Shown here piece by piece: positions 1,439 through 36,332 of a stretch of 39,368 nt of DNA. Location: sequence record OR545379; one strand, written 5' to 3'. Position numbers and translations under genes: made by a program. The stretch is from Escherichia phage Sekstaphage-1. Each line of letters starts with the position of its first letter. Within the stretch, counting starts at the first letter, position 1. A model generated the notes under the pieces. That model was not told where the DNA came from and did no database searches. It saw nothing but the letters and a program-made list of their open reading frames with translations.

Positions 1439-1636
1439 ATGCTCACAGCACTAATTGCACTGGTCTATCTGTGCATCGCTATGTACTTTATGCGAGACTT
1501 CAAGCGCGGTCTGGTAGTCCATAAGGCAACACTGAGTTACTTTAAGTGGGGATTCATCCCACGGTTTACGGTTCGTGAACGCAATGGACGCTTTAAGGCC
1601 AATAAGGTAGGAGTATTCTACATTGCTACGCACTAA
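1439..1636 (+). CDS. 0.6: Early protein, gene 0.6-like (function unknown)
   Basis: 65-aa ORF with GAGGT ribosome-binding site between 0.3 and 0.7; assigned by position. Confidence 0.5.
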   Translation: MLTALIALVYLCIAMYFMRDFKRGLVVHKATLSYFKWGFIPRFTVRERNGRFKANKVGVFYIATH

Positions 1637-1804
1637 CTCAAAGCACGTAAAGACCGCACTGTATGCGATGGCGTATGGTGCATCGAAACGCAAGGTCAAA
1701 CGCATCTTAACGAGACACCGCAAGATGACCGCACGACAGGCTGCAAGCGCTGTCAAATGGGCTGAATTTACTCTTTACTCTTACAGATAACAGGACACTG
1801 AACG

Positions 1805-2914
1805 ATGACTTTCACCGAAGCACAAGCCGCACTCGAAGCTATCCGCAACCTACCGATTGACCGATTGGATGAACGCCAGCCCATGCTGGTGGCTCTTGCG
1901 GCTGCTATCGTGAACGATGAGACCCAAGACGGCGAACTGACGCAGGCCAAGGGCAATTGGGGTCTGGAGTCGATGGACTACTGGCAGACACTGGCGGAGC
2001 GTATGCGTGATGTTGGCTTTGTACGCTTGGGTAACGGTCACTTTAGCGCAGCCTATGAGCACGCACTGCTACCGGGCAAGGTTATCAAGGTAGGCTTTAA
2101 GAAAGAGGATTCAGGCGCAGCCTATGCAGCATTCTGCCGTATGAATCAAGGGCGCGAAGGTATCCCTACGGTGTACGACATTCAGCGTCATGCAGGCTGT
2201 TACACGGTGGTTCTTGACTATCTGAACCCGCTTAACGATTGGTGCTATGGTGAGAGTGACAAGGTGCGTCACCACTTCAAAGCCGCACGGGAAATCATTG
2301 AGGAGGATTGCTTTGATGCTGCCGAAGAGTACCCAATAAGTGACGGGTTCATTGAGACCTGCAAGGATATTCGCAAGTTCTTCTTAGGCATCGCATCATT
2401 CGATTGTCACAGCGGTAACATGATGAAAGACCAGATGGGCCGCTTGATTATCACAGACCCGGTATCGTTCAGTGCAGACGACAAGTTAAAGCCTAACGAG
2501 TTCCACTGTGACCCGGATGAACTAATCGCCGAGATTGAGGCACTGAGGGCGCAGGAGGCTATCGAGCGCTGCAAGGCACGCAAGGCTAGACGTGACCCTA
2601 AAGGAACCTTTCAGGCAGCGCGTAAAGCACGCATCAAGTGGCGCAGAAAGGCCTCTAAGCGCGAGAAGCGCAACGCTAAGGTACTCGCTAGGATGCGCAT
2701 GGACGCCAATCAGAATCGCAGGGATGAGCCTAGGGCGCGTATGGTGTGGGGCGATAAGCACTGGCGCAACGCTTGGATGCACCACAACAACCTAAACTTT
2801 GCAGAACTGGAGCGCCGCGCTGCTGCGGTAATGATGCTGCATGATGAGGTGCGAATTCAGTGGGGCAAACCGTTACACATAGACGCATACCTTGACAAGC
2901 GTCTACAAGGCTGA
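1805..2914 (+). CDS. 0.7: Serine/threonine protein kinase / host transcription shut-off protein (gp0.7)
   Basis: 369-aa ORF; LGNGHFSAAY...VIKVGFKKEDSGAAYAAFCRM...HAGCYTVVLD is near-identical to T7 gp0.7 kinase motifs as I recall them. Confidence 0.9.
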   Translation: MTFTEAQAALEAIRNLPIDRLDERQPMLVALAAAIVNDETQDGELTQAKGNWGLESMDYWQTLAERMRDVGFVRLGNGHFSAAYEHALLPGKVIKVGFKKEDSGAAYAAFCRMNQGREGIPTVYDIQRHAGCYTVVLDYLNPLNDWCYGESDKVRHHFKAAREIIEEDCFDAAEEYPISDGFIETCKDIRKFFLGIASFDCHSGNMMKDQMGRLIITDPVSFSADDKLKPNEFHCDPDELIAEIEALRAQEAIERCKARKARRDPKGTFQAARKARIKWRRKASKREKRNAKVLARMRMDANQNRRDEPRARMVWGDKHWRNAWMHHNNLNFAELERRAAAVMMLHDEVRIQWGKPLHIDAYLDKRLQG

Positions 2915-12875: not shown

Positions 12876-14834
12876 ATGCTCGTAAGTGACATTGAGGCCA
12901 ACAACCTCTTAGAGAAAGTCACCAAGTTTCACTGTGGCGTCATCTATGACTACCGTGATGGTGAGTATCATAGTTATCGTCCGGGCGACTTCGGGGCGTA
13001 TCTGGATGCGCTGGAAGCCGAGGTGAAGCGAGGTGGGCTTATTGTTTTCCATAACGGTCACAAGTATGACGTTCCTACATTGACCAAACTGGCAAAGCTG
13101 CAATTGAACCGAGAGTTCCACCTTCCTCGTGAGAACTGTATCGACACCCTTGTGCTGTCACGCTTGATTCACTCTAACCTAAAGGACACCGATATGGGTC
13201 TTCTACGTTCCGGTAAACTTCCGGGGAAACGCTTTGGGTCTCACGCTCTGGAGGCGTGGGGTTATCGCTTAGGCGAGATGAAGGGTGAATACAAGGATGA
13301 CTTTAAGCGTATGCTTGAAGAGCAAGGCGAAGAATACGTTGACGGAATGGAGTGGTGGAACTTCAATGAAGAGATGATGGACTATAACGTTCAGGACGTT
13401 GTGGTCACTAAGGCTCTCCTTGAGAAGCTACTCTCTGACAAACATTACTTCCCTCCTGAGATTGACTTTACGGACGTAGGTTACACTACGTTCTGGTCAG
13501 AATCCCTTGAGGCCGTTGATGTTGAACATCGCGCTGCATGGCTACTCGCTAAGCAAGAGCGCAATGGATTCCCGTTTGACACGAAAGCAATCGAAGAGTT
13601 GTACGTAGAGTTAGCTGCTAGACGCTCTGAGTTGCTACGTAACTTGACCGAAACGTTTGGCTCGTGGTATCAACCTAAAGGTGGAACAGAAATGTTCTGC
13701 CATCCACGAACAGGTAAGCCACTACCTAAATACCCTCGCATTAAGATACCTAAAGTTGGTGGTATCTTTAAGAAGCCTAAGAACAAGGCACAGCGAGAAG
13801 GCCGTGAGCCTTGCGAACTGGATACCCGCGAGTACGTTGCTGGCGCTCCTTATACTCCAGTGGAGCACGTAGTGTTTAACCCTTCGTCTCGTGACCACAT
13901 CCAGAAGAAACTCCAAGAGGCTGGGTGGGTCCCAACTAAGTTCACCGATAAGGGTGCTCCTGTGGTGGACGATGAGGTACTCGAAGGAGTACGCGTAGAT
14001 GACCCTGAGAAGCAAGCGGCTATCGACCTCATTAAAGAGTACTTGATGATTCAGAAGCGAATCGGACAGTCTGCTGAGGGAGACAAGGCATGGCTTCGTT
14101 ACGTTGCTGAGGACGGTAAGATTCATGGTTCTGTTAACCCTAATGGAGCAGTTACGGGTCGTGCGACCCATGCGTTCCCCAACCTTGCGCAAATTCCGGG
14201 TGTACGTTCTCCTTATGGAGAGCAGTGTCGCGCTGCTTTTGGCGCTGAGCACCATTTGGATGGGATAACTGGTAAGCCTTGGGTTCAGGCAGGTATCGAC
14301 GCATCCGGCCTTGAGTTGCGCTGCTTGGCCCACTTCATGGCTCGCTTTGATAACGGTGAGTATGCTCACGAGATTCTTAATGGTGACATCCACACTAAGA
14401 ACCAGATGGCTGCTGAATTACCTACCCGTGATAACGCTAAGACGTTCATCTATGGGTTCCTCTATGGTGCTGGTGATGAGAAGATTGGGCAGATTGTTGG
14501 TGCTGGTAAAGAGCGCGGTAAGGAACTCAAGAAGAAATTCCTTGAGAACACACCTGCGATTGCAGCACTACGTGAGTCTATACAACAGACGCTTGTCGAA
14601 TCCTCTCAGTGGGTAGCTGGTGAGCAGCAAGTCAAGTGGAAACGCCGCTGGATTAAAGGTCTGGATGGTCGTAAGGTACACGTTCGTAGTCCTCACGCTG
14701 CCCTGAATACCCTACTGCAATCCGCTGGTGCTCTCATCTGCAAACTGTGGATTATCAAGACCGAAGAGATGCTCGTAGAGAAAGGCTTGAAGCACGGCTG
14801 GGATGGGGACTTTGCGTACATGGCATGGGTGCAT
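12876..14834 (+). CDS. 5: DNA polymerase gene 5, exon 1 (codons 1-653)
   Basis: Collinear with T7 gp5 up to ...[13 protein letters not shown]; the ORF then runs into intron sequence and stops after 7 unrelated codons. Confidence 0.95.
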
Positions 14835-26612: not shown

Positions 26613-28856
26613 ATGGCTAGTAAACTAAATAGCGTTTTAGGCAACATGGCGACTCCCGGTATGGAACGACTCCGGGGCGTCAAGGGTATGGACTACCGGG
26701 CAGCAACCATTCAGGCTGAACAACCAAGAGCGAGCCTTCTGGACTCCATTGGTCGATTCGCTAAGGCTGGTGCCGATATGTACATGGCGAAAGATGAACG
26801 TGATAAGCAACGAGCCGATGAGCGCTCCAACGAGATTATCCGTAAGCTGACCCCTGAGCAACGCCGACAGGCTATCCAGAATGGTACACTGCTGTATCAG
26901 GATGACCCATACGCAATGCAAGCCTTGAAGTTCAAGACCGGGCGTAACGCTGCGTTCCTCGTGGACGATGAGGTTCAACAGGGAATCAAAGAGGGACGCT
27001 TCCGTACCCGTGAAGAGTTGGAGCAGTACCGACATTCACGCCTACAGGAACACTCGAAGTCGTTCGCTGAGCAATTCGGCATCAATGAGATGGACGAGGA
27101 ATACCAGAAGGGCTTCAATGCGAACATCACCGAGCGTAACATTGCCCTGTATGGTGCACACGATTCGTTCCTGAGTGACCAAGCGCAGAAGGGTGCAATC
27201 CTGAACTCTAAGGTTGAACTCAACGGTGTCCTGTCTGACCCTGACCTGCTGTCTCGTCCTGAGTCCGGTGAGTTCTTCCAGAACTACATCGACAACTCTT
27301 TAGTTACCGGGATGACAGACAATCAGGCTCAACAGGTTATCTCTTCGTCCCTGAATGACGTGCTACAGCGTCCGGGTGGTGCCACCTTCTTGCAGAACGT
27401 TGAGAACCGCAAGGTGACTCTGAATGGCGCTACGACTACCTATCGTGAACTGATGGGTGACGAGCAGTGGCAGGCCATGATGATTAAGGCACAGCACACT
27501 CAATTCCAGAACAACGCGAAGTTAACCGAGAAGTTCCGATTGGATATTAACTCTGCGATTAACCAAGCGGACACTGGTAAAGGCTGGGAGACTCTTCAAG
27601 GCATCAAGGCTGAACTCGATAAGATTCAACCGGGCGAAGAGATGACTCCTGAGCGCGAGTGGCTAATTGCCGCACAGGAACAGATGCGCACCCGCTTCAA
27701 GCAGGAACAGGCTGAGACAGCCAAGCTAATGGACAAGCAACAGAAGACCCTGAATAAATCTATGGTCATCGACAAGCAGTTCCAGAAGCGCCTCAACGGT
27801 GAATACGTCTCGACCAACTATAAGGACATGCCGACCAACGAGAACACTGGTGAGTTTACACATAGCGATATGGTCAACTACGCGAACCAGAAGTTAGCGG
27901 AAATCGAAGCGATGGACTTAACACCTGAACAGAAAGACAAACTGAAATTGGACTACCTACGGGCAGACGCCAAGGAAGGTGCTTTCCGGGCGGCGTTTGG
28001 TGAGATGATTACGGACGCGGGTAACGAGTGGCAGGCTGCGGTGATTAACGGTAAGATGCCTGAGAGCACACCAGCGATGGACAACCTTCGTCGCATCCGC
28101 AACACTGACCCTGACCTGATTGCCTCTCTGTATCCTGACAAGGCCGAGTTGTTCCTGACGATGGACATGTTGGATAACCAAGGTATCGACACGCAGGTTC
28201 TTATCGACGCTGATAAGTCCCGCGCACAGAAGACCAAGGAGATGCAGTTTGAGGATGACCGAGCGTGGGCTGCTATGATGAACGATTCAACGAATCCTCA
28301 AATCAAGTACATGCCTGCGAGCGTCCAAGGGTATGCCCGGAAGCTTTATGATTCCGTGAAGTACCGGACAGGGAACCCTGACATGGCAACCGAACAGGTC
28401 GCAAAGTTCCTCTCCGATTCGACGACCACGTTCTCCAGTAGCGATGTTGAGGGTGATACCTATGGCGTCCTACCGAAGAACATCCTAACTGTTTCGGATG
28501 ACCCTAAGTCGTGGGAGCAAGGGAAGAACATTCTGGACGAAGCCATTAAGGGAATCACAGCGGCGAACCCTTGGATTACCAACAAGCAACTGACTGTGTA
28601 CCAGCAAGGTGATTCAATCTACCTGATGGACACAACCGGACAGGTTCGCATTCGGTATGACCAAGAGTTGCTCCAGCGTGAGTATCAGCGCACCGCACAG
28701 ATGCAAGCTGAGGCAGCACGAGAGAAAGCTCTCAAAGAGGCCAATAAGCGTGCTCCAATCAGTCGCGTATCGCAGGCTCGCAAAGAAGCACGTAAACGTG
28801 TCCAAGAGAAACGGAATCAGACTCCTAAGTTCATCTATGGACGTAAAGAAGACTAA
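26613..28856 (+). CDS. 15: Internal virion (core) protein C (gp15)
   Basis: 747 aa, the same length as T7 gp15; GGGAGG ribosome-binding site. Confidence 0.9.
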   Translation: MASKLNSVLGNMATPGMERLRGVKGMDYRAATIQAEQPRASLLDSIGRFAKAGADMYMAKDERDKQRADERSNEIIRKLTPEQRRQAIQNGTLLYQDDPYAMQALKFKTGRNAAFLVDDEVQQGIKEGRFRTREELEQYRHSRLQEHSKSFAEQFGINEMDEEYQKGFNANITERNIALYGAHDSFLSDQAQKGAILNSKVELNGVLSDPDLLSRPESGEFFQNYIDNSLVTGMTDNQAQQVISSSLNDVLQRPGGATFLQNVENRKVTLNGATTTYRELMGDEQWQAMMIKAQHTQFQNNAKLTEKFRLDINSAINQADTGKGWETLQGIKAELDKIQPGEEMTPEREWLIAAQEQMRTRFKQEQAETAKLMDKQQKTLNKSMVIDKQFQKRLNGEYVSTNYKDMPTNENTGEFTHSDMVNYANQKLAEIEAMDLTPEQKDKLKLDYLRADAKEGAFRAAFGEMITDAGNEWQAAVINGKMPESTPAMDNLRRIRNTDPDLIASLYPDKAELFLTMDMLDNQGIDTQVLIDADKSRAQKTKEMQFEDDRAWAAMMNDSTNPQIKYMPASVQGYARKLYDSVKYRTGNPDMATEQVAKFLSDSTTTFSSSDVEGDTYGVLPKNILTVSDDPKSWEQGKNILDEAIKGITAANPWITNKQLTVYQQGDSIYLMDTTGQVRIRYDQELLQREYQRTAQMQAEAAREKALKEANKRAPISRVSQARKEARKRVQEKRNQTPKFIYGRKED

Positions 28857-28874
28857 CAGTGATAAGGAGGCTCC

Positions 28875-31800
28875 ATGAGTTACGATAAGAACAAACCTAG
28901 CGAGTTCGATGGGTTATTTCAAAAAGCGGCAGACAATCATGGGGTCTCCTATGACCTGCTTCGTAAATTAGCATTCAACGAATCCAGCTTTAATCCAAAG
29001 GCCAAATCCCCAACTGGCCCGAAGGGTCTCATGCAGTTCACCAAAGGTACAGCCACTGCGCTTGGCCTCAAGGTTACTGACGCTGAGGACGATGACCGTT
29101 ACAACCCTGAGTTGGCTGTGGATGCAGCCGCTCGTCACCTGAGTGACCTCATTCGGAAATACGATGGGGATGAACTCAAAGCTGCCTTGGCGTATAATCA
29201 GGGCGAGGGACGCAACGGTGCTCCGCAGATACAGGCTTATGATAAAGGCGATTGGGCCTCAATATCTGAGGAAGGTCGTAACTACATGCGTAACCTGATG
29301 GATGTAGCCAATAGCCCACGTAAGGGAGACTTGGAGGCGTTCGGTGGTATCACCCCAAAGGCTAAGGGTATTCCCTCTGAGGAAGCCTTTGCGGGAATCG
29401 GGAAGAAGCAGACGGTAGGCACTGACCTGCCGGAGTCAACTGGATTCAAAGTGGAGGGTAAAGAGCAGCAAGCACCTAACATGCCTTATGCTAAGGACTT
29501 TTGGGAAAAGACTGGAACAACACTGGACGAGTTTAATTCGCGTTCAACCTTCTTCGGAATCGGAGATGCCACAAGTGCAGAACTTCACAACTCCGTATTG
29601 GGTGTGGCTTTTCGTGCCGCTCGTAGTGATGACGGTTTTGATTTATTCAAGGACACCATTACGCCGACTCGCTGGAACAGCCATACGTGGACTCCAGAAG
29701 AGTTAGAGCGTATCCGTAAGGAAGTGAAGAATCCAGACTACATTAACGTGGTCACTGGTGGTTCTCCTGAGAATCTGGATGCCCTCATTAAGATGGCTAA
29801 CGACAACTATGCGATGGACGCCCAAGCTGCTGATGCTGGTATTGGCGCTAGGCTGACTGCTGGTATCGTCGGTGCAGGTGTTGACCCACTGAGCTATGTT
29901 CCTCTAGTGGGTGTAGCCGGGAAGGGTCTCAAGGTGGCTAACAAGGCTTTCATTGTTGGTACTCAAAGTGCCGGACTCGCGGTTGCCTCTGAGGGTCTCC
30001 GTACATCAATCGCTGGTGGAGAATCCCACTATGCTGATGCTGCTTTAGGCGGTCTGATGTTCGGTGCTGGGATGAGTGCAATAAGTGATGCTATCGCGGC
30101 TGGTATTCGGCGTTCCCGTGGGAATGAGGTTGTTAATGACTTCGCTCCTATGGCACACCGATTGGAAGCCCGTGAGACCGCTCAGAACACTGGTGGGGAA
30201 GACCTGACCCGTATGCCTAGCGAGAACCGTGTGTTCGACCGTGAGCACGCTGGCGTTGAGTATTCACCTCTGGAGACCGAGCCGGGTGCCGTTGTGTTGC
30301 CTCAAGGTCAAATCCTGAGCGACACCAACCCGCTGAACCCTCAGACTCTTAGCGAGTTCGAGGCGGTCAACCCTGAGCGTGCAGCGCGTGGTATCTCTTT
30401 GGGTGGATTCACTGAGATTGGCTTGAAGACTCTACGCTCAGAGAACCCGACTGTTCGCTCCATTGCGAGTGACCTTGTGCGCTCTCCGACTGGTATGGAG
30501 TCCGGGACTTCTGGTAAGTTCGGCGCGACAGCTTCTGACATTAAGGAGCGACTCCACGCGAACAACCAGCGCACCTACAATCAACTTTATGATGCTGTAC
30601 GCGCTGCAATGAAAGACCCTGAGTTCTCCACTGGTGGTTCCAAGATGAGCCGTAAGGAAATCAGACAGGAAATCTACAAACGTGCAGCCCTAGCTATTGA
30701 GCGACCTGAGCTTCAAGCGAACCTGACAAAGGGTGAGCGGAATGTGATGAATATCCTCAAGCAGCACTTTGACCTAAAACGTGAAATCATGGAGAACCCA
30801 TCAATCTTCGGTAACACCAAGGCAACCAGTATCTTCCCCGGCTCACGCCATAAGGGAACCTACGTGCCTAACGTGTATGACCGAGCACTCAAGATTGATA
30901 TGATTAAACGGTATGGTAATGACGGCTTGCAGCGAGCAATCGCGGAGTCGTGGTTGACCTCTTATCGTGCTCGCCCCGAAGTCAAGGCGCGTGTCGATGA
31001 GTACCTGATGGAACTTAGCGGTCTCAAGTCTGTGCAGGAAGTTACGCCAGAGATGGTGCAGAAGCACGCAATGGATAAGGCGTATGGTATTTCACACACA
31101 GACCAGTTCTCTGCATCCTCTATCATTGAGGACAACATTGAGGGTCTGGTGGGAATCGAGAACAATAACTTCTTGGAAGCCCGCAACATGTTCGACAGTG
31201 ACATGGCGGTGACTCTCCCGGATGGTAACACGTTCTCTGTGAATGACCTGCGTACTTATGACATGGCTGAAATTCTACCTGCATATGACCGCCGAGTTGA
31301 TGGTGATGTTGCAATCATGGGTGGTTCCGGTAAGACCACCAAAGACCTGAAAGATGAAATCATGGCACTAGACAAGCAGTCAGAAGGCAACGGTACGCTG
31401 AAAGGTGAGGTCGAAGCCCTAAAGGACACCGTGAAGATTCTAACTGGTCGCGCTAGAAGGAACCCGGAAGGCGCTTGGGGCACAGCCCTACGCTCAGTCA
31501 ATGACCTTACGTTCTTCGCTAAGAACGCCTACATGGGTGCACAGAACATTACCGAAATCGCTGGTATGCTGGCTAAAGGTAACGTCTCTGCGATAACTCA
31601 TGGAATCCCTATGATTAACGATTGGGTCAACCGTGGGAAACCGCTGCGTGCCTCCGAGATTAAAGAGCTACACGGAATGGTGTTTGGTAAGGAACTAGAC
31701 CAGTTAATCCGTCCGGGACGTGAAGACCATGTACGCCGCCTTCGGGAGTCTACGGACACCAACGCTGCGGTTGCTAACGTGGTCGGTACGATTCGGTTCG

Positions 31801-32837
31801 GCACTCAAGAGTTGGCTGCACGTTCTCCTTGGACGTTGATGCTCAACGGCACCTCCAACTACATTCTAGATGCTGCCCGTCAGGGTGTGCTTGGAGATGT
31901 GGCTGGTGCAGCCCTAGCCGGGAAAGGCTCCAAGTTCGGCAAGGCGAATTACCTTAAGTCTGCCTCAATCAGCCCTGAGCAGTGGAACGGAATCAAGCAG
32001 TTGTTCCGCGACCACGCGACTCGTGAGGCTGACGGTAAGTTTACCATCAAGGATAAACAGGCTTTTGCTAATGACCCACGCTCAATGGACTTGTGGCGTC
32101 TGGCTGACAAGGTGGCTGATGAGACTATACTTCGTCCACACAAGGTTTCCTCACAGGATGCCAAGGCATTCGGTGCCGGAGTTAAGATGGTGATGCAGTT
32201 TAAGAACTTCGTCATCAAGTCCCTGAACTCCCGGTTTGTCCGTAGCTTCTATGAGGCAACGAAGAACAACCGAGCGTTAGACCAAGCGTTGACTCATGTC
32301 ATCTCCTTAGGTCTGGCTGGCGGTTACTACGTTGGTCAGGCACACCTCAAGGCTGCAAGCCTACAGGAACATAAACGTAAGGAGTACCTTAAGAACGCAC
32401 TTGACCCGAAGATGATTGCCCATGCATCAATCTCTCGTAGTTCGCACTTAGGCGCACCATTGGGTATCTATGACATGCTCGCTGGGATGGTTGGCAGCGA
32501 TACCTATAAGTATACACGCTCCACGGTACTCCCTAAAGAGTCTGAGAAGCGCGACCCTAGCAAGGCAGCAACGGGTAGACAGGTGGCTTCAACCATCGCT
32601 GGTGCGGTTGGTGAGCAGGTTCCGGGTTTGGGGTTTATTGGCTCTGTAGGAGCAACAGCAATTAATGCTGCTTCCCTACTGTCTTCTCCCAACAAAACAA
32701 CCGCTCTGGAGTTCCGTACAGGTCTCTTCAACACCTCTCGTGAGTTGATTCCTAATGACCCGCTCTCACAGCAACTCATCATGAAAATCTACGAGGCCAA
32801 CGGCATCCGCATAAAGGAGTCCCCGAAGAAACAATAA
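28875..32837 (+). CDS. 16: Internal virion (core) protein D with N-terminal lytic transglycosylase domain (gp16)
   Basis: 1320 aa collinear with T7 gp16; N-terminal transglycosylase-type segment GPKGLMQFTKGTA...AALAYNQGEG. Confidence 0.95.
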   Translation: MSYDKNKPSEFDGLFQKAADNHGVSYDLLRKLAFNESSFNPKAKSPTGPKGLMQFTKGTATALGLKVTDAEDDDRYNPELAVDAAARHLSDLIRKYDGDELKAALAYNQGEGRNGAPQIQAYDKGDWASISEEGRNYMRNLMDVANSPRKGDLEAFGGITPKAKGIPSEEAFAGIGKKQTVGTDLPESTGFKVEGKEQQAPNMPYAKDFWEKTGTTLDEFNSRSTFFGIGDATSAELHNSVLGVAFRAARSDDGFDLFKDTITPTRWNSHTWTPEELERIRKEVKNPDYINVVTGGSPENLDALIKMANDNYAMDAQAADAGIGARLTAGIVGAGVDPLSYVPLVGVAGKGLKVANKAFIVGTQSAGLAVASEGLRTSIAGGESHYADAALGGLMFGAGMSAISDAIAAGIRRSRGNEVVNDFAPMAHRLEARETAQNTGGEDLTRMPSENRVFDREHAGVEYSPLETEPGAVVLPQGQILSDTNPLNPQTLSEFEAVNPERAARGISLGGFTEIGLKTLRSENPTVRSIASDLVRSPTGMESGTSGKFGATASDIKERLHANNQRTYNQLYDAVRAAMKDPEFSTGGSKMSRKEIRQEIYKRAALAIERPELQANLTKGERNVMNILKQHFDLKREIMENPSIFGNTKATSIFPGSRHKGTYVPNVYDRALKIDMIKRYGNDGLQRAIAESWLTSYRARPEVKARVDEYLMELSGLKSVQEVTPEMVQKHAMDKAYGISHTDQFSASSIIEDNIEGLVGIENNNFLEARNMFDSDMAVTLPDGNTFSVNDLRTYDMAEILPAYDRRVDGDVAIMGGSGKTTKDLKDEIMALDKQSEGNGTLKGEVEALKDTVKILTGRARRNPEGAWGTALRSVNDLTFFAKNAYMGAQNITEIAGMLAKGNVSAITHGIPMINDWVNRGKPLRASEIKELHGMVFGKELDQLIRPGREDHVRRLRESTDTNAAVANVVGTIRFGTQELAARSPWTLMLNGTSNYILDAARQGVLGDVAGAALAGKGSKFGKANYLKSASISPEQWNGIKQLFRDHATREADGKFTIKDKQAFANDPRSMDLWRLADKVADETILRPHKVSSQDAKAFGAGVKMVMQFKNFVIKSLNSRFVRSFYEATKNNRALDQALTHVISLGLAGGYYVGQAHLKAASLQEHKRKEYLKNALDPKMIAHASISRSSHLGAPLGIYDMLAGMVGSDTYKYTRSTVLPKESEKRDPSKAATGRQVASTIAGAVGEQVPGLGFIGSVGATAINAASLLSSPNKTTALEFRTGLFNTSRELIPNDPLSQQLIMKIYEANGIRIKESPKKQ

Positions 32838-32855
32838 ACCCTCACTAAAGGGAGA
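32833..32855 (+). promoter_or_regulatory. Phage RNAP promoter (phi17-like)
   Basis: AATAAACCCTCACTAAAGGGAGA. Confidence 0.85.
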
Positions 32856-32916
32856 GAGGTCACATTCTGGCCTCTTCTCTCTCTATCGCTTAGTGCTAAT
32901 TTATAAAGGAGGTCAC

Positions 32917-34920
32917 ATGGCTACAACTATTAAGACCGTGATGACTTACCCACTGGATGGCTCCACTACGGACTTTAATATTCCGTTCGAGTATCTGGCG
33001 CGTAAGTTCGTCCGAGTGACCCTTATCGGTGTTGACCGAAAGGAACTCATCTTGAATCAAGACTATCGTTTTGCAACTAAGACCACAATCTCCACAACGA
33101 GAGCATTGGGGCCAGCGGACGGATATACTTTGATTGAAATCAGGCGATTCACCTCCGCTACAGATCGTCTGGTTGACTTTACCGACGGCTCTATCCTGCG
33201 GGCATATGATTTGAACATATCTCTGGTTCAGGCCCTTCACGTTGCTGAGGAAGCCCGTGACCTTACCGCTGATACAATTGGCGTTAACAATGATGGGAAC
33301 TTGGATGCTCGTGGTCGTAAGATTGTGAACCTAGCGTTCGCCACCAGTGACTATGATGCTGTCCCTCTGAAGCAGGTTAAGGAACGTGAGACCTCTGTGT
33401 GGAGTGCTGTTGCTAAAGCTGATGAACATGCTAACCGTTCTAACACTGAGGCTAACCGTTCTCGTGATGAGGCCAACCGTGCTCAACGTGAAGCTGACCG
33501 CTCAACGCAACAGGCAGGTGTCTCTACGCAACAAGCGGTTGAGTCCAAGAAGCAAGCTGACCGTTCCAACTCTGAGGCCAACCGTGCTAAAGGTTACGCT
33601 GATAGTATGCCAGCCAGTGTTGAAGCCGCAAAGGGTCACGCTGACCGTTCCAATAAGGAAGCTGACCGTGCTCGTGATGAGGCCAATCGTGCTGCTGGAG
33701 AAGTCACTAAGGCGGCTGCTGAGGTTGCCAAGGCTGCTGCACATGTTGAGACCGCTAAGGGACATGCTGACCGAGCCAACACTGAGGCAAACCGCTCCAA
33801 GAGTGAAGCTGACCGTGCAAAGACCGAGGCTGACAAGTTAGGCAACATGAATGCACTTGCAGGGGCTGTTGAAAGTGTATCAGGCAATGATGTACGCTTT
33901 AAGGGTAAAGTAAGTGGGCGCAGTCTGACTCTACATAATGATGCTAAAGGCGCTGGGACTCAACCAGTAGACCAAGTGTGGAATCAGTGGCGTGGTCAGG
34001 ACTCTAAGGAGACTGTGTGGGAACAGTGGATTCAAGCTGGGACAAAACGAATGGACTACTATGCGTTCACTAACACCGACCCGGCAACGTGGCCTGAAGG
34101 TCGTTCCAATAGCAAAGGACACCATAGCTTCTATGGTGACGTTCTGTTTGCTGGTGGTAACGTCGAGATGCACGGGAACCTTAAGGTAAACGCAGTTGAG
34201 TCTAGAAATAACGTGTTCATCTCCGACAAAGCCGCAAGTTTCAAGAGTAACACACATGGTGGTGGCTGGAACCAGTGGACTAGTAGCTTGAATCCAGACC
34301 TACAGCATGATATTGCTGGACAAGGGGACGTTGCATATCTCCTTGAGAGGGCTACAATTTGGGGCAAAGAACACCTGTATGCCAAGTGCTTATATAACAA
34401 CGGCACTGGCGCTAACTTCTTTATCAGGCAATATCTGCGAGGCACCTATTTCGACCTACGCTCCGATGGTGTCCTTGCCTGCTCTTCTGGTTGGAACATC
34501 CCAGCCGATGGTAACCTATATATCAAGAAGTACGGAATGTACATTGATGCGTGGGTAAATAATCGTCTGTCCGAACATGCCTACAACAAAGGAGAAGTGA
34601 ACAACTTGGTCAACGGTCGTCTTACCACTGGTCAGGGTGATGGTCGCTATGTCCGCAAGAACGCTGGGTGGGCTGAGGTCTGGAGCGGCCATGCTGGTGG
34701 TGGTGTTTCCGTAGGTCTCTCACAGGATGTCCGATGGAGAACTATCTGGATTCAAACTAATGGGCGCTGGAACGCTGTTCCTATTGGTGACGACGCACGA
34801 TACTTCATCTCGTCTGATGGTGGTTGGCTTAAGTTCACAATCTCTAACAACGGGAGAACTTTCCGTAATGATGCTGACCGTAGTTCTGTGCCTACGAGAA
34901 TCTTGATTCAAAACCAATAA
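32917..34920 (+). CDS. 17: Tail fibre protein (gp17)
   Basis: 667 aa from ATG 32917 (MATTIKTVMTYPLDGSTTDFNIPFEYLARKF...); N-terminal 150 aa and the C-terminal tip (...WSGHAGGGVSVGLSQDVRWRTIWIQ...) are T7 gp17-like; the centre is repeat-rich. Confidence 0.93.
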   Translation: MATTIKTVMTYPLDGSTTDFNIPFEYLARKFVRVTLIGVDRKELILNQDYRFATKTTISTTRALGPADGYTLIEIRRFTSATDRLVDFTDGSILRAYDLNISLVQALHVAEEARDLTADTIGVNNDGNLDARGRKIVNLAFATSDYDAVPLKQVKERETSVWSAVAKADEHANRSNTEANRSRDEANRAQREADRSTQQAGVSTQQAVESKKQADRSNSEANRAKGYADSMPASVEAAKGHADRSNKEADRARDEANRAAGEVTKAAAEVAKAAAHVETAKGHADRANTEANRSKSEADRAKTEADKLGNMNALAGAVESVSGNDVRFKGKVSGRSLTLHNDAKGAGTQPVDQVWNQWRGQDSKETVWEQWIQAGTKRMDYYAFTNTDPATWPEGRSNSKGHHSFYGDVLFAGGNVEMHGNLKVNAVESRNNVFISDKAASFKSNTHGGGWNQWTSSLNPDLQHDIAGQGDVAYLLERATIWGKEHLYAKCLYNNGTGANFFIRQYLRGTYFDLRSDGVLACSSGWNIPADGNLYIKKYGMYIDAWVNNRLSEHAYNKGEVNNLVNGRLTTGQGDGRYVRKNAGWAEVWSGHAGGGVSVGLSQDVRWRTIWIQTNGRWNAVPIGDDARYFISSDGGWLKFTISNNGRTFRNDADRSSVPTRILIQNQ

Positions 34921-34967
34921 TGGAATACAACGAGGCCACGGATGGTCTCAACAATAAGGAGGACACA

Positions 34968-35174
34968 ATGTTGTCTTTAGATTTTAACAACGAGGTAGTG
35001 AAGGCTGCTCCGATTGTAGGGACAGGTGTAGCCGATGGTGCTGCCCGTCTGTTCTTCGGACTGTCCCTTAACGAGTGGTTCTATGTAGCCGCAATTGCCT
35101 ACACAGTGGCTCAAATTGGTGCCAAGGTAGTCGATGTGATTATCAAATGGAAGAAGGAGGGTAAAGATGTCTAA
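34968..35174 (+). CDS. 17.5: Holin (gp17.5)
   Basis: 68 aa from ATG 34968 (MLSLDFNNEVVKAAPIVGTGVADGAARLFFGLSLNEWFYVAAIAYTVAQIGAKVV...), near-identical to T7 holin; AAGGAGG ribosome-binding site. Confidence 0.9.
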   Translation: MLSLDFNNEVVKAAPIVGTGVADGAARLFFGLSLNEWFYVAAIAYTVAQIGAKVVDVIIKWKKEGKDV

Positions 35175-35436
35175 CGATAAATCTTTGATTCAATTCCTTG
35201 AGATGCTGGACACTGAGATGGCTCAACGTATGCTTGCTGACTTGCAGAACGATGAACGACGCACACCTCAACTGTACAACGCAATCGGGAAACTATTAGA
35301 GCGCCACAAATTCCAAGTCTCCAAGTTACAGCCAGACCGTAACATCCTTGGTGGACTGGCAGATGGACTCGAAGAGTACCAGAACATGGTGGGCGCTGAT
35401 GGTCTCACTGAAGACGAGAAGTACACGCTTAACTGA
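35167..35436 (+). CDS. 18: Terminase small subunit (gp18)
   Basis: 89 aa, the same length as T7 gp18; GAAGGAGGG ribosome-binding site. Confidence 0.9.
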   Translation: MSNDKSLIQFLEMLDTEMAQRMLADLQNDERRTPQLYNAIGKLLERHKFQVSKLQPDRNILGGLADGLEEYQNMVGADGLTEDEKYTLN

Positions 35437-35439
35437 TGG

Positions 35440-35478
35440 TAATACTCAAGGTCATCTTAATGGTGGCCTTTATGGATT
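35440..35478 (+). promoter_or_regulatory. RNase III processing hairpin (R18.5-like)
   Basis: TAATACTCAAGGTCATCTTAATGGTGGCCTTTATGGATT. Confidence 0.6.
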
Positions 35479-35494
35479 ATCAATAGGAGGTGAT

Positions 35495-35896
35495 ATGGAA
35501 GGAATGTATAGAAGTGGTGGTTACTGGAAGGTTACTATAAACGGTAAAGTACACGGTGTACACAGGTTGTTGTGGGAAGCTGCCTATGGCTCAATACCAG
35601 ATGGTTATGTTATAGACCACATTGACAGAGATGGTCTTAATAATTCTCTTGATAACTTACGGTGCATACCGAAGGGAGCTAACAAGGCAAACACTGTATC
35701 CTCAAGGGACTTACCGAAGGGAGTATACTCTCGGTTTGCCAAGCGACTTAACTGCATTGTGTACTATGGGGATATTAGAATGGGAGGTGTGAAGAAAACA
35801 CATGCTCCTACTAAGAATCTGAAGGAAGTCGTGGACTGGTCTATTAAGACTCACAAGCAGATGCTGGGGGAAACATATGGGATTCAAAACAGTTAA
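35495..35896 (+). CDS. Free-standing HNH homing endonuclease with AP2-like domain
   Basis: 133 aa from ATG 35495 with AGGAGG ribosome-binding site; HNH core HRLLWEAAYGSIPDGYVIDHIDRDGLNNSLDNLRCIP; sits between gene 18 and gene 18.5. Confidence 0.85.
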   Translation: MEGMYRSGGYWKVTINGKVHGVHRLLWEAAYGSIPDGYVIDHIDRDGLNNSLDNLRCIPKGANKANTVSSRDLPKGVYSRFAKRLNCIVYYGDIRMGGVKKTHAPTKNLKEVVDWSIKTHKQMLGETYGIQNS

Positions 35897-36332
35897 GAGC
35901 TACGCCATCGCTGTGGCCTTTGCCTTGGGGATGACCCTTGCGTACAACCACGGCTATGACAAGGCTAACACTAAATGGGAACAGGAGGTGCACAATGAGT
36001 ACGTTAAGAAAGTTGAGGCGACTGCGGATAAACAGGCTGCTCTCAATGAAGTCTCACGACAATACCAAGAAGACCTTGCGGCGCTGGAAGGCAGCACTGA
36101 TAGGGTCATTAATGATTTGCGTAACGATGGTAAGCGGCTGTCAGTCCGCGTCAAGAACCTTACCGGACTACCGAAAGGTGACGGTCGATGCGAGTTTGAT
36201 GGTCGAGCCGAACTACACGAGTCAGATGCTAAGCGTATTATCGGAATAGCCCAAGCTGCTGATGCTCACGTAAGAGCGTTGCAGAAAACTATTAAGGAGA
36301 TGCAGAATGAGCGACACCCAAGCAAATCGTAA
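35877..36332 (+). CDS. 18.5: Inner-membrane spanin (Rz-like, gp18.5)
   Basis: 151 aa; N-terminal transmembrane segment [15 protein letters not shown], then [16 protein letters not shown]...[20 protein letters not shown] matching T7 gp18.5. Confidence 0.85.
35995..36249 (+). CDS. 18.7: Outer-membrane lipoprotein spanin (Rz1-like, gp18.7) embedded in gene 18.5
   Basis: 84 aa from ATG 35995 in the +1 frame of gene 18.5; signal peptide with lipobox (VSGC) and Pro-rich mature part; AGGAGG ribosome-binding site. Confidence 0.8.
   Translation: MSTLRKLRRLRINRLLSMKSHDNTKKTLRRWKAALIGSLMICVTMVSGCQSASRTLPDYRKVTVDASLMVEPNYTSQMLSVLSE

Follow-up and report, generated by a model that had tools for sequence, protein, structure and literature searches.

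The open frame ending at position 1790 of Escherichia phage Sekstaphage-1 is, judged by its sequence, the already known early gene 0.65 of bacteriophage T3, and nothing at the locus is new. It is probably expressed as a separate class I (early) gene of the Teetrevirus group, initiated at a UUG codon at 1623 that is served by its own Shine-Dalgarno sequence, and not as an extension of gene 0.6. The DNA analysed here (the window) is the whole stretch of 39,368 nucleotides in record OR545379.

Gene 0.65 in the early region

Positions 1380–1830 are 100% identical by megablast to bacteriophage T3 (AJ318471, KC960671 and T7M), and the left 6 kb of the window is ~96% identical to T3. A segment of ~8 kb (28213–36316), which roughly covers the internal virion protein and tail fibre region going by T3 coordinates, gave no megablast match to T3; the remaining sequence is 90–99% identical. 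The ~96% identity of the left 6 kb together with the unmatched segment at 28.2–36.3 kb identifies the phage as a T3-like Teetrevirus and not T3 itself. These alignments show the window to be a mosaic relative of T3 in which a late-gene module appears to have been replaced.

The local gene order is 0.3 (SAM hydrolase, 910–1368), 0.6, the 0.65 frame, the 0.7 protein kinase (1805–2914, plus strand) and RNA polymerase, and the downstream kinase gene fixes the position of 0.65 within the early region. Gene 0.6 (1439–1636, plus strand) extends from an ATG to a TAA stop at 1634–1636 and is identical to T3 gene 0.6 (AJ318471 1430..1627). Its 65-residue product matches PHROG 2385 (E 9e-30) and contains a hydrophobic N-terminus and a conserved C-terminus, ...GRFKANKVGVFYIATH; the DNA encoding this C-terminus includes the ribosome-binding site and the start of gene 0.65. 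The sole match of gene 0.6 in Pfam, NCBIfam and PADLOC, to the Pfam family Sensor_TM1, was weak and below threshold (E 0.053, 13.7 bits against a cut-off of 26.6 bits). Scanning of 1300–1900 for promoters and terminators returned nothing above chance. On the minus strand, an antisense ORF of 101 codons with a TTG start (1451–1756) overlaps both 0.6 and 0.65; it is most likely a by-product of the sense coding constraints, as the annotated genes of T3 all lie on the plus strand.

Gene 0.65 (1623–1790, plus strand) contains 55 codons between the UUG start at 1623 and the TAA stop at 1788–1790 and overlaps gene 0.6 by 14 nt (1623–1636). The frame is +1 relative to 0.6 and is open for 59 codons, from 1611 to the TAA. 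The initial annotation had described a frame open from 1605 to 1790 that overlaps the last 10 codons of 0.6. Its end at 1790 is correct, but a TAG at 1608–1610 (plus strand) closes the frame upstream, which places the opening 6 nt later, at 1611, and reduces the overlap to eight sense codons plus the stop (1611–1636). The in-frame ATG that it had noted at 1668 is present and, as stated there, has no Shine-Dalgarno sequence upstream; the in-frame TTG at 1623 had been overlooked. A comparison with T3 annotations, which it had proposed as a check on an extended 0.6 product, points the other way: the T3 record contains a separate gene 0.65 with a UUG start. The segment 1623–1790 is 100% identical to this T3 gene (CAC86262.1, AJ318471 1614..1781, 'UUG start codon'). 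They agree in start codon (TTG), in overlap with 0.6, in length (55 residues) and in lying between 0.6 and 0.7, with no difference at the locus. Residues 1–55 of the product align with positions 1–55 of the 55-position profile PHROG 10380 (E 2.4e-34).

A lone open frame of 59 codons has a chance probability of ~0.06, given by (61/64)^59. As openness alone is within chance, the frame is taken as a real gene because it is conserved. The 0.65 protein was detected by tblastn in 176 phage records, mainly of Teetrevirus, Przondovirus and Elunavirus, each at no less than 80% query coverage (at least 80% in every match). Across 24 unique sequences, compared over codons 6–50 (outside the overlap), pN/pS is 0.33 in the 0.65 frame (median dN/dS 0.21), and the two alternative frames give 0.98 and 1.27. 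Entropy is highest at the third codon position (0.90; first position, 0.45; second position, 0.37). Only five real relatives of 0.65 emerged when 1.84 billion representatives were searched with an HMM.

Start signal and start codons in relatives

The putative Shine-Dalgarno sequence of gene 0.65, AAGGTAGGAG (1604–1613, plus strand), lies inside the 0.6 coding sequence, and its GGAG ends 9 nt before the TTG at 1623. The duplex calculated for this sequence and the 3' end of 16S rRNA (-8.4 kcal/mol) is the strongest among the junctions compared; values for the other T3-type junctions and that of Kluyvera phage Kvp1 range from -6.5 to -8.1 kcal/mol, and that of T7 is -3.4. A ribosome-binding site at the equivalent position, followed by a TTG start, is annotated in the curated record of Klebsiella phage Poynor. 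Gene 0.65 is the sole TTG start among the 54 annotated CDS of the T3 record.

The junction between the two genes was read in 37 loci, out of 94 megablast and 176 tblastn records, and in two further loci (L043 and L044). All 37 have an identical geometry, with the 0.6 stop located +5 nt from the first base of the 0.65 Arg3 codon. An ATG is present at -9 relative to the Arg3 codon in all Przondovirus and Elunavirus loci and in the metagenomic L044, which shows 88% amino-acid identity to T3 0.65. This ATG of relatives outside the T3 lineage is one codon upstream of the T3 TTG and leaves the overlap geometry unchanged. Sekstaphage-1 carries an ACA codon (1620–1622, plus strand) at the same position, as the reading of these junctions including L043 and L044 revealed. 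The letters are ...TTC TATG TCG... in the relatives, starting at the ATG, versus ...TTC TAC ATTG... in T3, starting at the TTG; the corresponding 0.6-frame codons are TAT GTC or TAT GTT in relatives and TAC ATT in the T3 lineage. ACA TTG following AAGGTAGG[AG]G occurs in 14 of 14 T3-lineage loci and also in L043, a divergent member with only 83% amino-acid identity. Methionine occupies the ATG position, as the start or as an internal residue, in 25 of 27 database homologues, and the two without it (P0001 and P0009) both belong to the T3 lineage. Four distant relatives from the HMM search begin with M[LS]Q at this position.

Since the ATG occurs in every relative examined outside the T3 lineage, independent AUG initiation is regarded as ancestral and prevailing. 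The ancestral AUG was located one codon upstream of the present start, and the T3 lineage lost it by two substitutions, TATG to TACA, while keeping the UUG with a strong Shine-Dalgarno sequence. The most likely start of translation is UUG 1623, to which ribosomes would be directed by AAGGUAGGAG (1604–1613) in the last codons of 0.6. The UUG is 11 nt upstream of the 0.6 stop codon. On this geometry alone, translation of 0.65 is probably coupled to that of gene 0.6, and the weak UUG start would be fed by ribosomes that are still reading 0.6 or have terminated on it. Against the UUG start, UUG is a weak and rare initiator, used nowhere else in the T3 annotation, and a spacing of 9 nt from the Shine-Dalgarno sequence is close to the upper limit of what is usual. 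Neither ribosome profiling nor peptide data for T3 0.6 and 0.65 turned up in the searchable literature.

The main alternative is that the T3 lineage starts instead at AUG 1668 (Met16; 1668–1670, plus strand), producing a 40-residue protein without the first predicted helix. This is the only ATG in the 0.65 frame, Met16 is invariant across the family, and the start has been chosen by at least one annotator (Pantoea phage F2M1C). In the TTG lineage, codons 6–15 have a pN/pS of 0.91 and codons 16–50 one of 0.24; the same two segments give 0.53 and 0.40 in the ATG lineages. The value of 0.91 over the ten codons between the 0.6 stop and ATG 1668 weakly suggests that the N-terminus is perhaps no longer translated; however, it rests on ~10 events (~8 non-synonymous and 2 synonymous). 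The changes at the N-terminus of L043 are conservative ones to residues also present in ATG lineages, for example KHIRTALH, and argue against this start. Moreover, helix 1 (residues 6–17) is a confident part of the predicted bundle, and the sequence upstream of AUG 1668 (AAAGACCGCACTGTATGCG) contains no Shine-Dalgarno motif. Initiation at AUG 1668 is accordingly held to be unlikely, and UUG 1623 is retained as the preferred start.

The canonical start codon is gone throughout the T3 lineage, and several records of this lineage, such as that of Leclercia phage 10164-302, leave the ORF unannotated. Both would fit an ORF left untranslated after the loss of the ATG and now a slowly decaying remnant. 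Such decay is highly improbable, as the ORF is intact in 15 of 15 TTG-lineage loci examined, including L043 at 83% amino-acid identity, and the Shine-Dalgarno sequence is kept and is the strongest of the junctions compared. Within the TTG lineage alone, the low pN/pS of codons 16–50 (0.24) reflects purifying selection and indicates that the ORF is still translated there. Sekstaphage-1 and L043 differ by 11 synonymous and 6 non-synonymous substitutions.

The frameshift model, the T7 junction and the public records

The initial annotation had proposed that a +1 shift near 1605–1636 could extend gene 0.6 in the manner of T7 0.6B. Because of the TAG at 1608–1610, any such shift must fall between 1611 and 1633. 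Some of the ribosomes translating 0.6 would then slip within this interval to produce a programmed 0.6–0.65 fusion of ~119 residues, which would tether a three-helix domain to the hydrophobic N-terminus of gp0.6. The idea of a +1 frameshift is already present in databases: the record of Yersinia phage phiYeO3-12 reads 'putative +1 frameshift afford gp0.6B', and a 'possible gene 0.6B' is annotated at the homologous T7 junction. The 0.65 frame is indeed +1 relative to 0.6, and the ATG is gone in the T3 lineage. The +1 frameshifting of prfB (RF2) uses a Shine-Dalgarno stimulator, and the GGAG located 2 nt upstream of UUC 1616–1618 loosely resembles it. The likeness to prfB consists of this Shine-Dalgarno-like GGAG just ahead of a candidate P-site codon and of a second frame in +1. 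Different from prfB, the site contains neither a slippery codon of the CUU-U type nor, in the A site, a rare codon or an in-frame stop, and it is unconserved in relatives.

The details of the junction argue against the proposed shift, and no shifty motif is conserved in relatives, an outcome that the initial annotation had itself listed as counting against its proposal. The 0-frame codons of the overlap are GGA GUA UUC UAC AUU GCU ACG CAC, on which no tRNA re-pairs in +1; the respective +1 codons are GAG, UAU, UCU, ACA, UUG, CUA, CGC and ACU, none of which keeps first- and second-position pairing. The sole stop, UAA 1634, follows CAC, which would need to re-pair on ACU. There is no slow codon in the overlap, with rare Arg and Leu codons being absent. 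The junction itself is variable, reading GGA GTA TTC TAC ATT, GGG ATA TTC TAT GTC or GGG TTC TGG TAT GTT, and there is no conserved RNA structure: the fold of the single sequence is not significant (z = -0.41), and the alignment fold of 12 junctions (-6.7 kcal/mol) is without covariation. The locus also has an independent initiation signal, the Shine-Dalgarno sequence AAGGTAGGAG plus the UUG, and all examined relatives outside the T3 lineage start 0.65 at an ATG. The authors of the phiYeO3-12 record themselves gave the T3 ORF as a separate gene 0.65, and the +1 fusion is impossible in the T7-type relative L049 (see below). A programmed frameshift here is therefore given very little credence. 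Slighter still is the chance that the T3 lineage expresses 0.65 at least in part as a 0.6–0.65 fusion through a non-canonical +1 shift at UUC-UAC (1616–1621), stimulated by GGAG as in prfB; if true, one Shine-Dalgarno sequence would both signal initiation and stimulate frameshifting, and the hydrophobic N-terminus of gp0.6 would hold the fused three-helix domain at the membrane.

The analogy with T7 0.6B, on the other hand, is positionally correct. The T7 0.6A/0.6B junction (AAC AAG ATA GGT TCC GGC TAT GAC AGA ACG CAC TGA) is homologous at the nucleotide level to that of T3 (AAT AAG GTA GGA GTA TTC TAC ATT GCT ACG CAC TAA), and in both phages the second ORF is in the +1 frame and starts at the homologous position within the last codons of 0.6 (0.6A in T7). 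T7 0.6A and T3 0.6 have only the last ~13 residues in common, K.NK.G..Y..TH (pairwise E 0.003), and this shared C-terminal stretch bears the start of the next gene. The T7-type N-termini, MTERTD and MLQRTD, resemble the M[LS]QRTD of 0.65 relatives; one difference is that the ACA of the T3 junction is replaced in T7 by an ATG at exactly this position. Apart from the junction and about six initial residues, the second ORFs of the T3 and T7 types have nothing in common. Homology of T3 0.65 with the body of the T7-type protein was considered and rejected (hhalign probability 0.15%, printed as 0.15, E 0.4; best BLASTP segment, E 0.53).

The 'possible gene 0.6B' of T7 (NC_001604; NP_041957.1) is annotated as a two-piece join spanning 1636..1972 with a change to the +1 frame. 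The earlier T7 left-end record V01127 gives the same ORF as a separate '0.65 protein' with an ATG at 1781. The T7-type second ORF contains 72 codons, and its pN/pS is 0.13 versus 1.56 and 2.35 in the other frames. Comparison of NC_001604 (L003) with AY264774 (L039), L040 and L046–L050 showed that one A is missing from the former at ~1895/1896 (AAGG-ACAAG versus AAGGAACAAG), a position within the ORF that follows 0.6A. When this A is present, T7 and its relatives encode a conserved protein of 72 residues that extends from ATG 1781 to just before gene 0.7; the missing A makes the C-terminal half of the annotated 0.6B (NP_041957) differ from this conserved protein. The 0.6A homologue in L049, also of the T7 type, shares the frame of the ATG and ends with a TGA 12 nt ahead of it, which is what makes a +1 fusion impossible there. 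These sequence comparisons suggest that the 'possible 0.6B' of T7 is better read as a separate conserved gene of 72 codons than as a frameshift product.

Kluyvera phage Kvp1 (L040, FJ194439 1464..1863) combines a T3-type 0.6 (...GRFKANKVGIFYVATH) with a T7-type ORF of 72 residues, which is annotated as 0.62. The junction of the 0.6 end and the next start appears to be a boundary at which alternative downstream gene cassettes exchange.

The public records describe the T3-type ORF in several ways. The 0.6A/0.6B pair of phiYeO3-12 (AJ251805; CAB63589.1/CAB63588.1) is the same pair of ORFs with the identical junction AAGGTAGGAGTATTCTACATTG, and its 0.65 part is 96% identical. The difference is in the annotation model only, the two ORFs being joined there as a 119-residue fusion, which is also the form contained in BFVD. 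In the T3 record, as in most later records and papers on Teetrevirus, 0.6 and 0.65 are two genes. Within the T3 lineage, the records of SALSA (L037) and Poynor (L033) have a TTG start and 56 residues, that of Pantoea phage F2M1C (L036) has the internal ATG start and 41 codons, and the 0.65 ORF of Leclercia phage 10164-302 (L038) is unannotated. One ORF has thus four public descriptions, namely a frameshift fusion, a UUG gene, an ATG-truncated gene and none, and the value of the present comparison is one of annotation hygiene. The sequence data favour one consistent model, in which 0.65 would be a gene of its own, with AUG as its start codon in most Studiervirinae and UUG in the T3 lineage.

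Two further groups of records deserve comment. The 0.6 and 0.65 homologues of Erwinia phage vB_EamP-L1 (L008/L030, NC_019510 1239..1585) each align to T3 in two pieces in different frames, and the annotation of this phage gives a truncated gp0.6 (45 residues) and a gp0.65 of 39 residues. The closely related Pantoea-phage sequences P0014 and P0015 encode an intact 60-residue protein. The split frames of vB_EamP-L1 reflect either sequencing errors or real decay. In many Przondovirus genomes (L032, Klebsiella phage SH-Kp 152410; P0019, P0002 and P0027), the 0.65 frame is open far upstream because there is no TAG in the Shine-Dalgarno region. Gene callers consequently give N-terminally extended versions of 68–95 residues that read 0.6 in the wrong frame; these versions are annotation artefacts and not fusions.

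Predicted product of gene 0.65

The gp0.65 protein has 55 residues (6.4 kDa) and a pI of 11.4, with 14 Lys and Arg residues and a single acidic residue. Searches of Pfam, NCBIfam and PADLOC gave no matches for 0.65, and no paper with experimental data on the gene was found in the searchable literature. Residues 8–29 (HVKTALYAMAYGASKRKVKRIL; 1644–1709) resemble motif B (O-helix) of the phage DNA polymerase (14433–14498) with 36% identity, and PHROG 15971 (DNA polymerase I) matches residues 5–33 with an E of 0.02. The motif B likeness was judged not significant (within-window E ~0.1) and is probably due to chance.

AlphaFold, supplied with the family alignment, predicts a three-helix bundle (pLDDT 88) with helices at residues 6–17, 22–33 and 37–54. 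The top Foldseek matches of this model in the PDB are mostly helix-turn-helix (HTH) domains, including the N-terminal domain of the small terminase, Mu transposase, sigma region 4 and the LuxR type, but all have E values of at least 1 and TM-scores of 0.5–0.6; no PDB match had an E below 1. In BFVD, the fold search retrieved nothing beyond family members and small phage proteins that are uncharacterised. Given the early position among the host-takeover genes 0.3–0.7, the charge and the weakly HTH-like fold, gp0.65 is predicted, with low confidence, to be a small host-takeover protein whose early target is a nucleic acid or a protein of the host. Its place among the host-takeover genes makes it a sensible, if ordinary, choice for functional screens.
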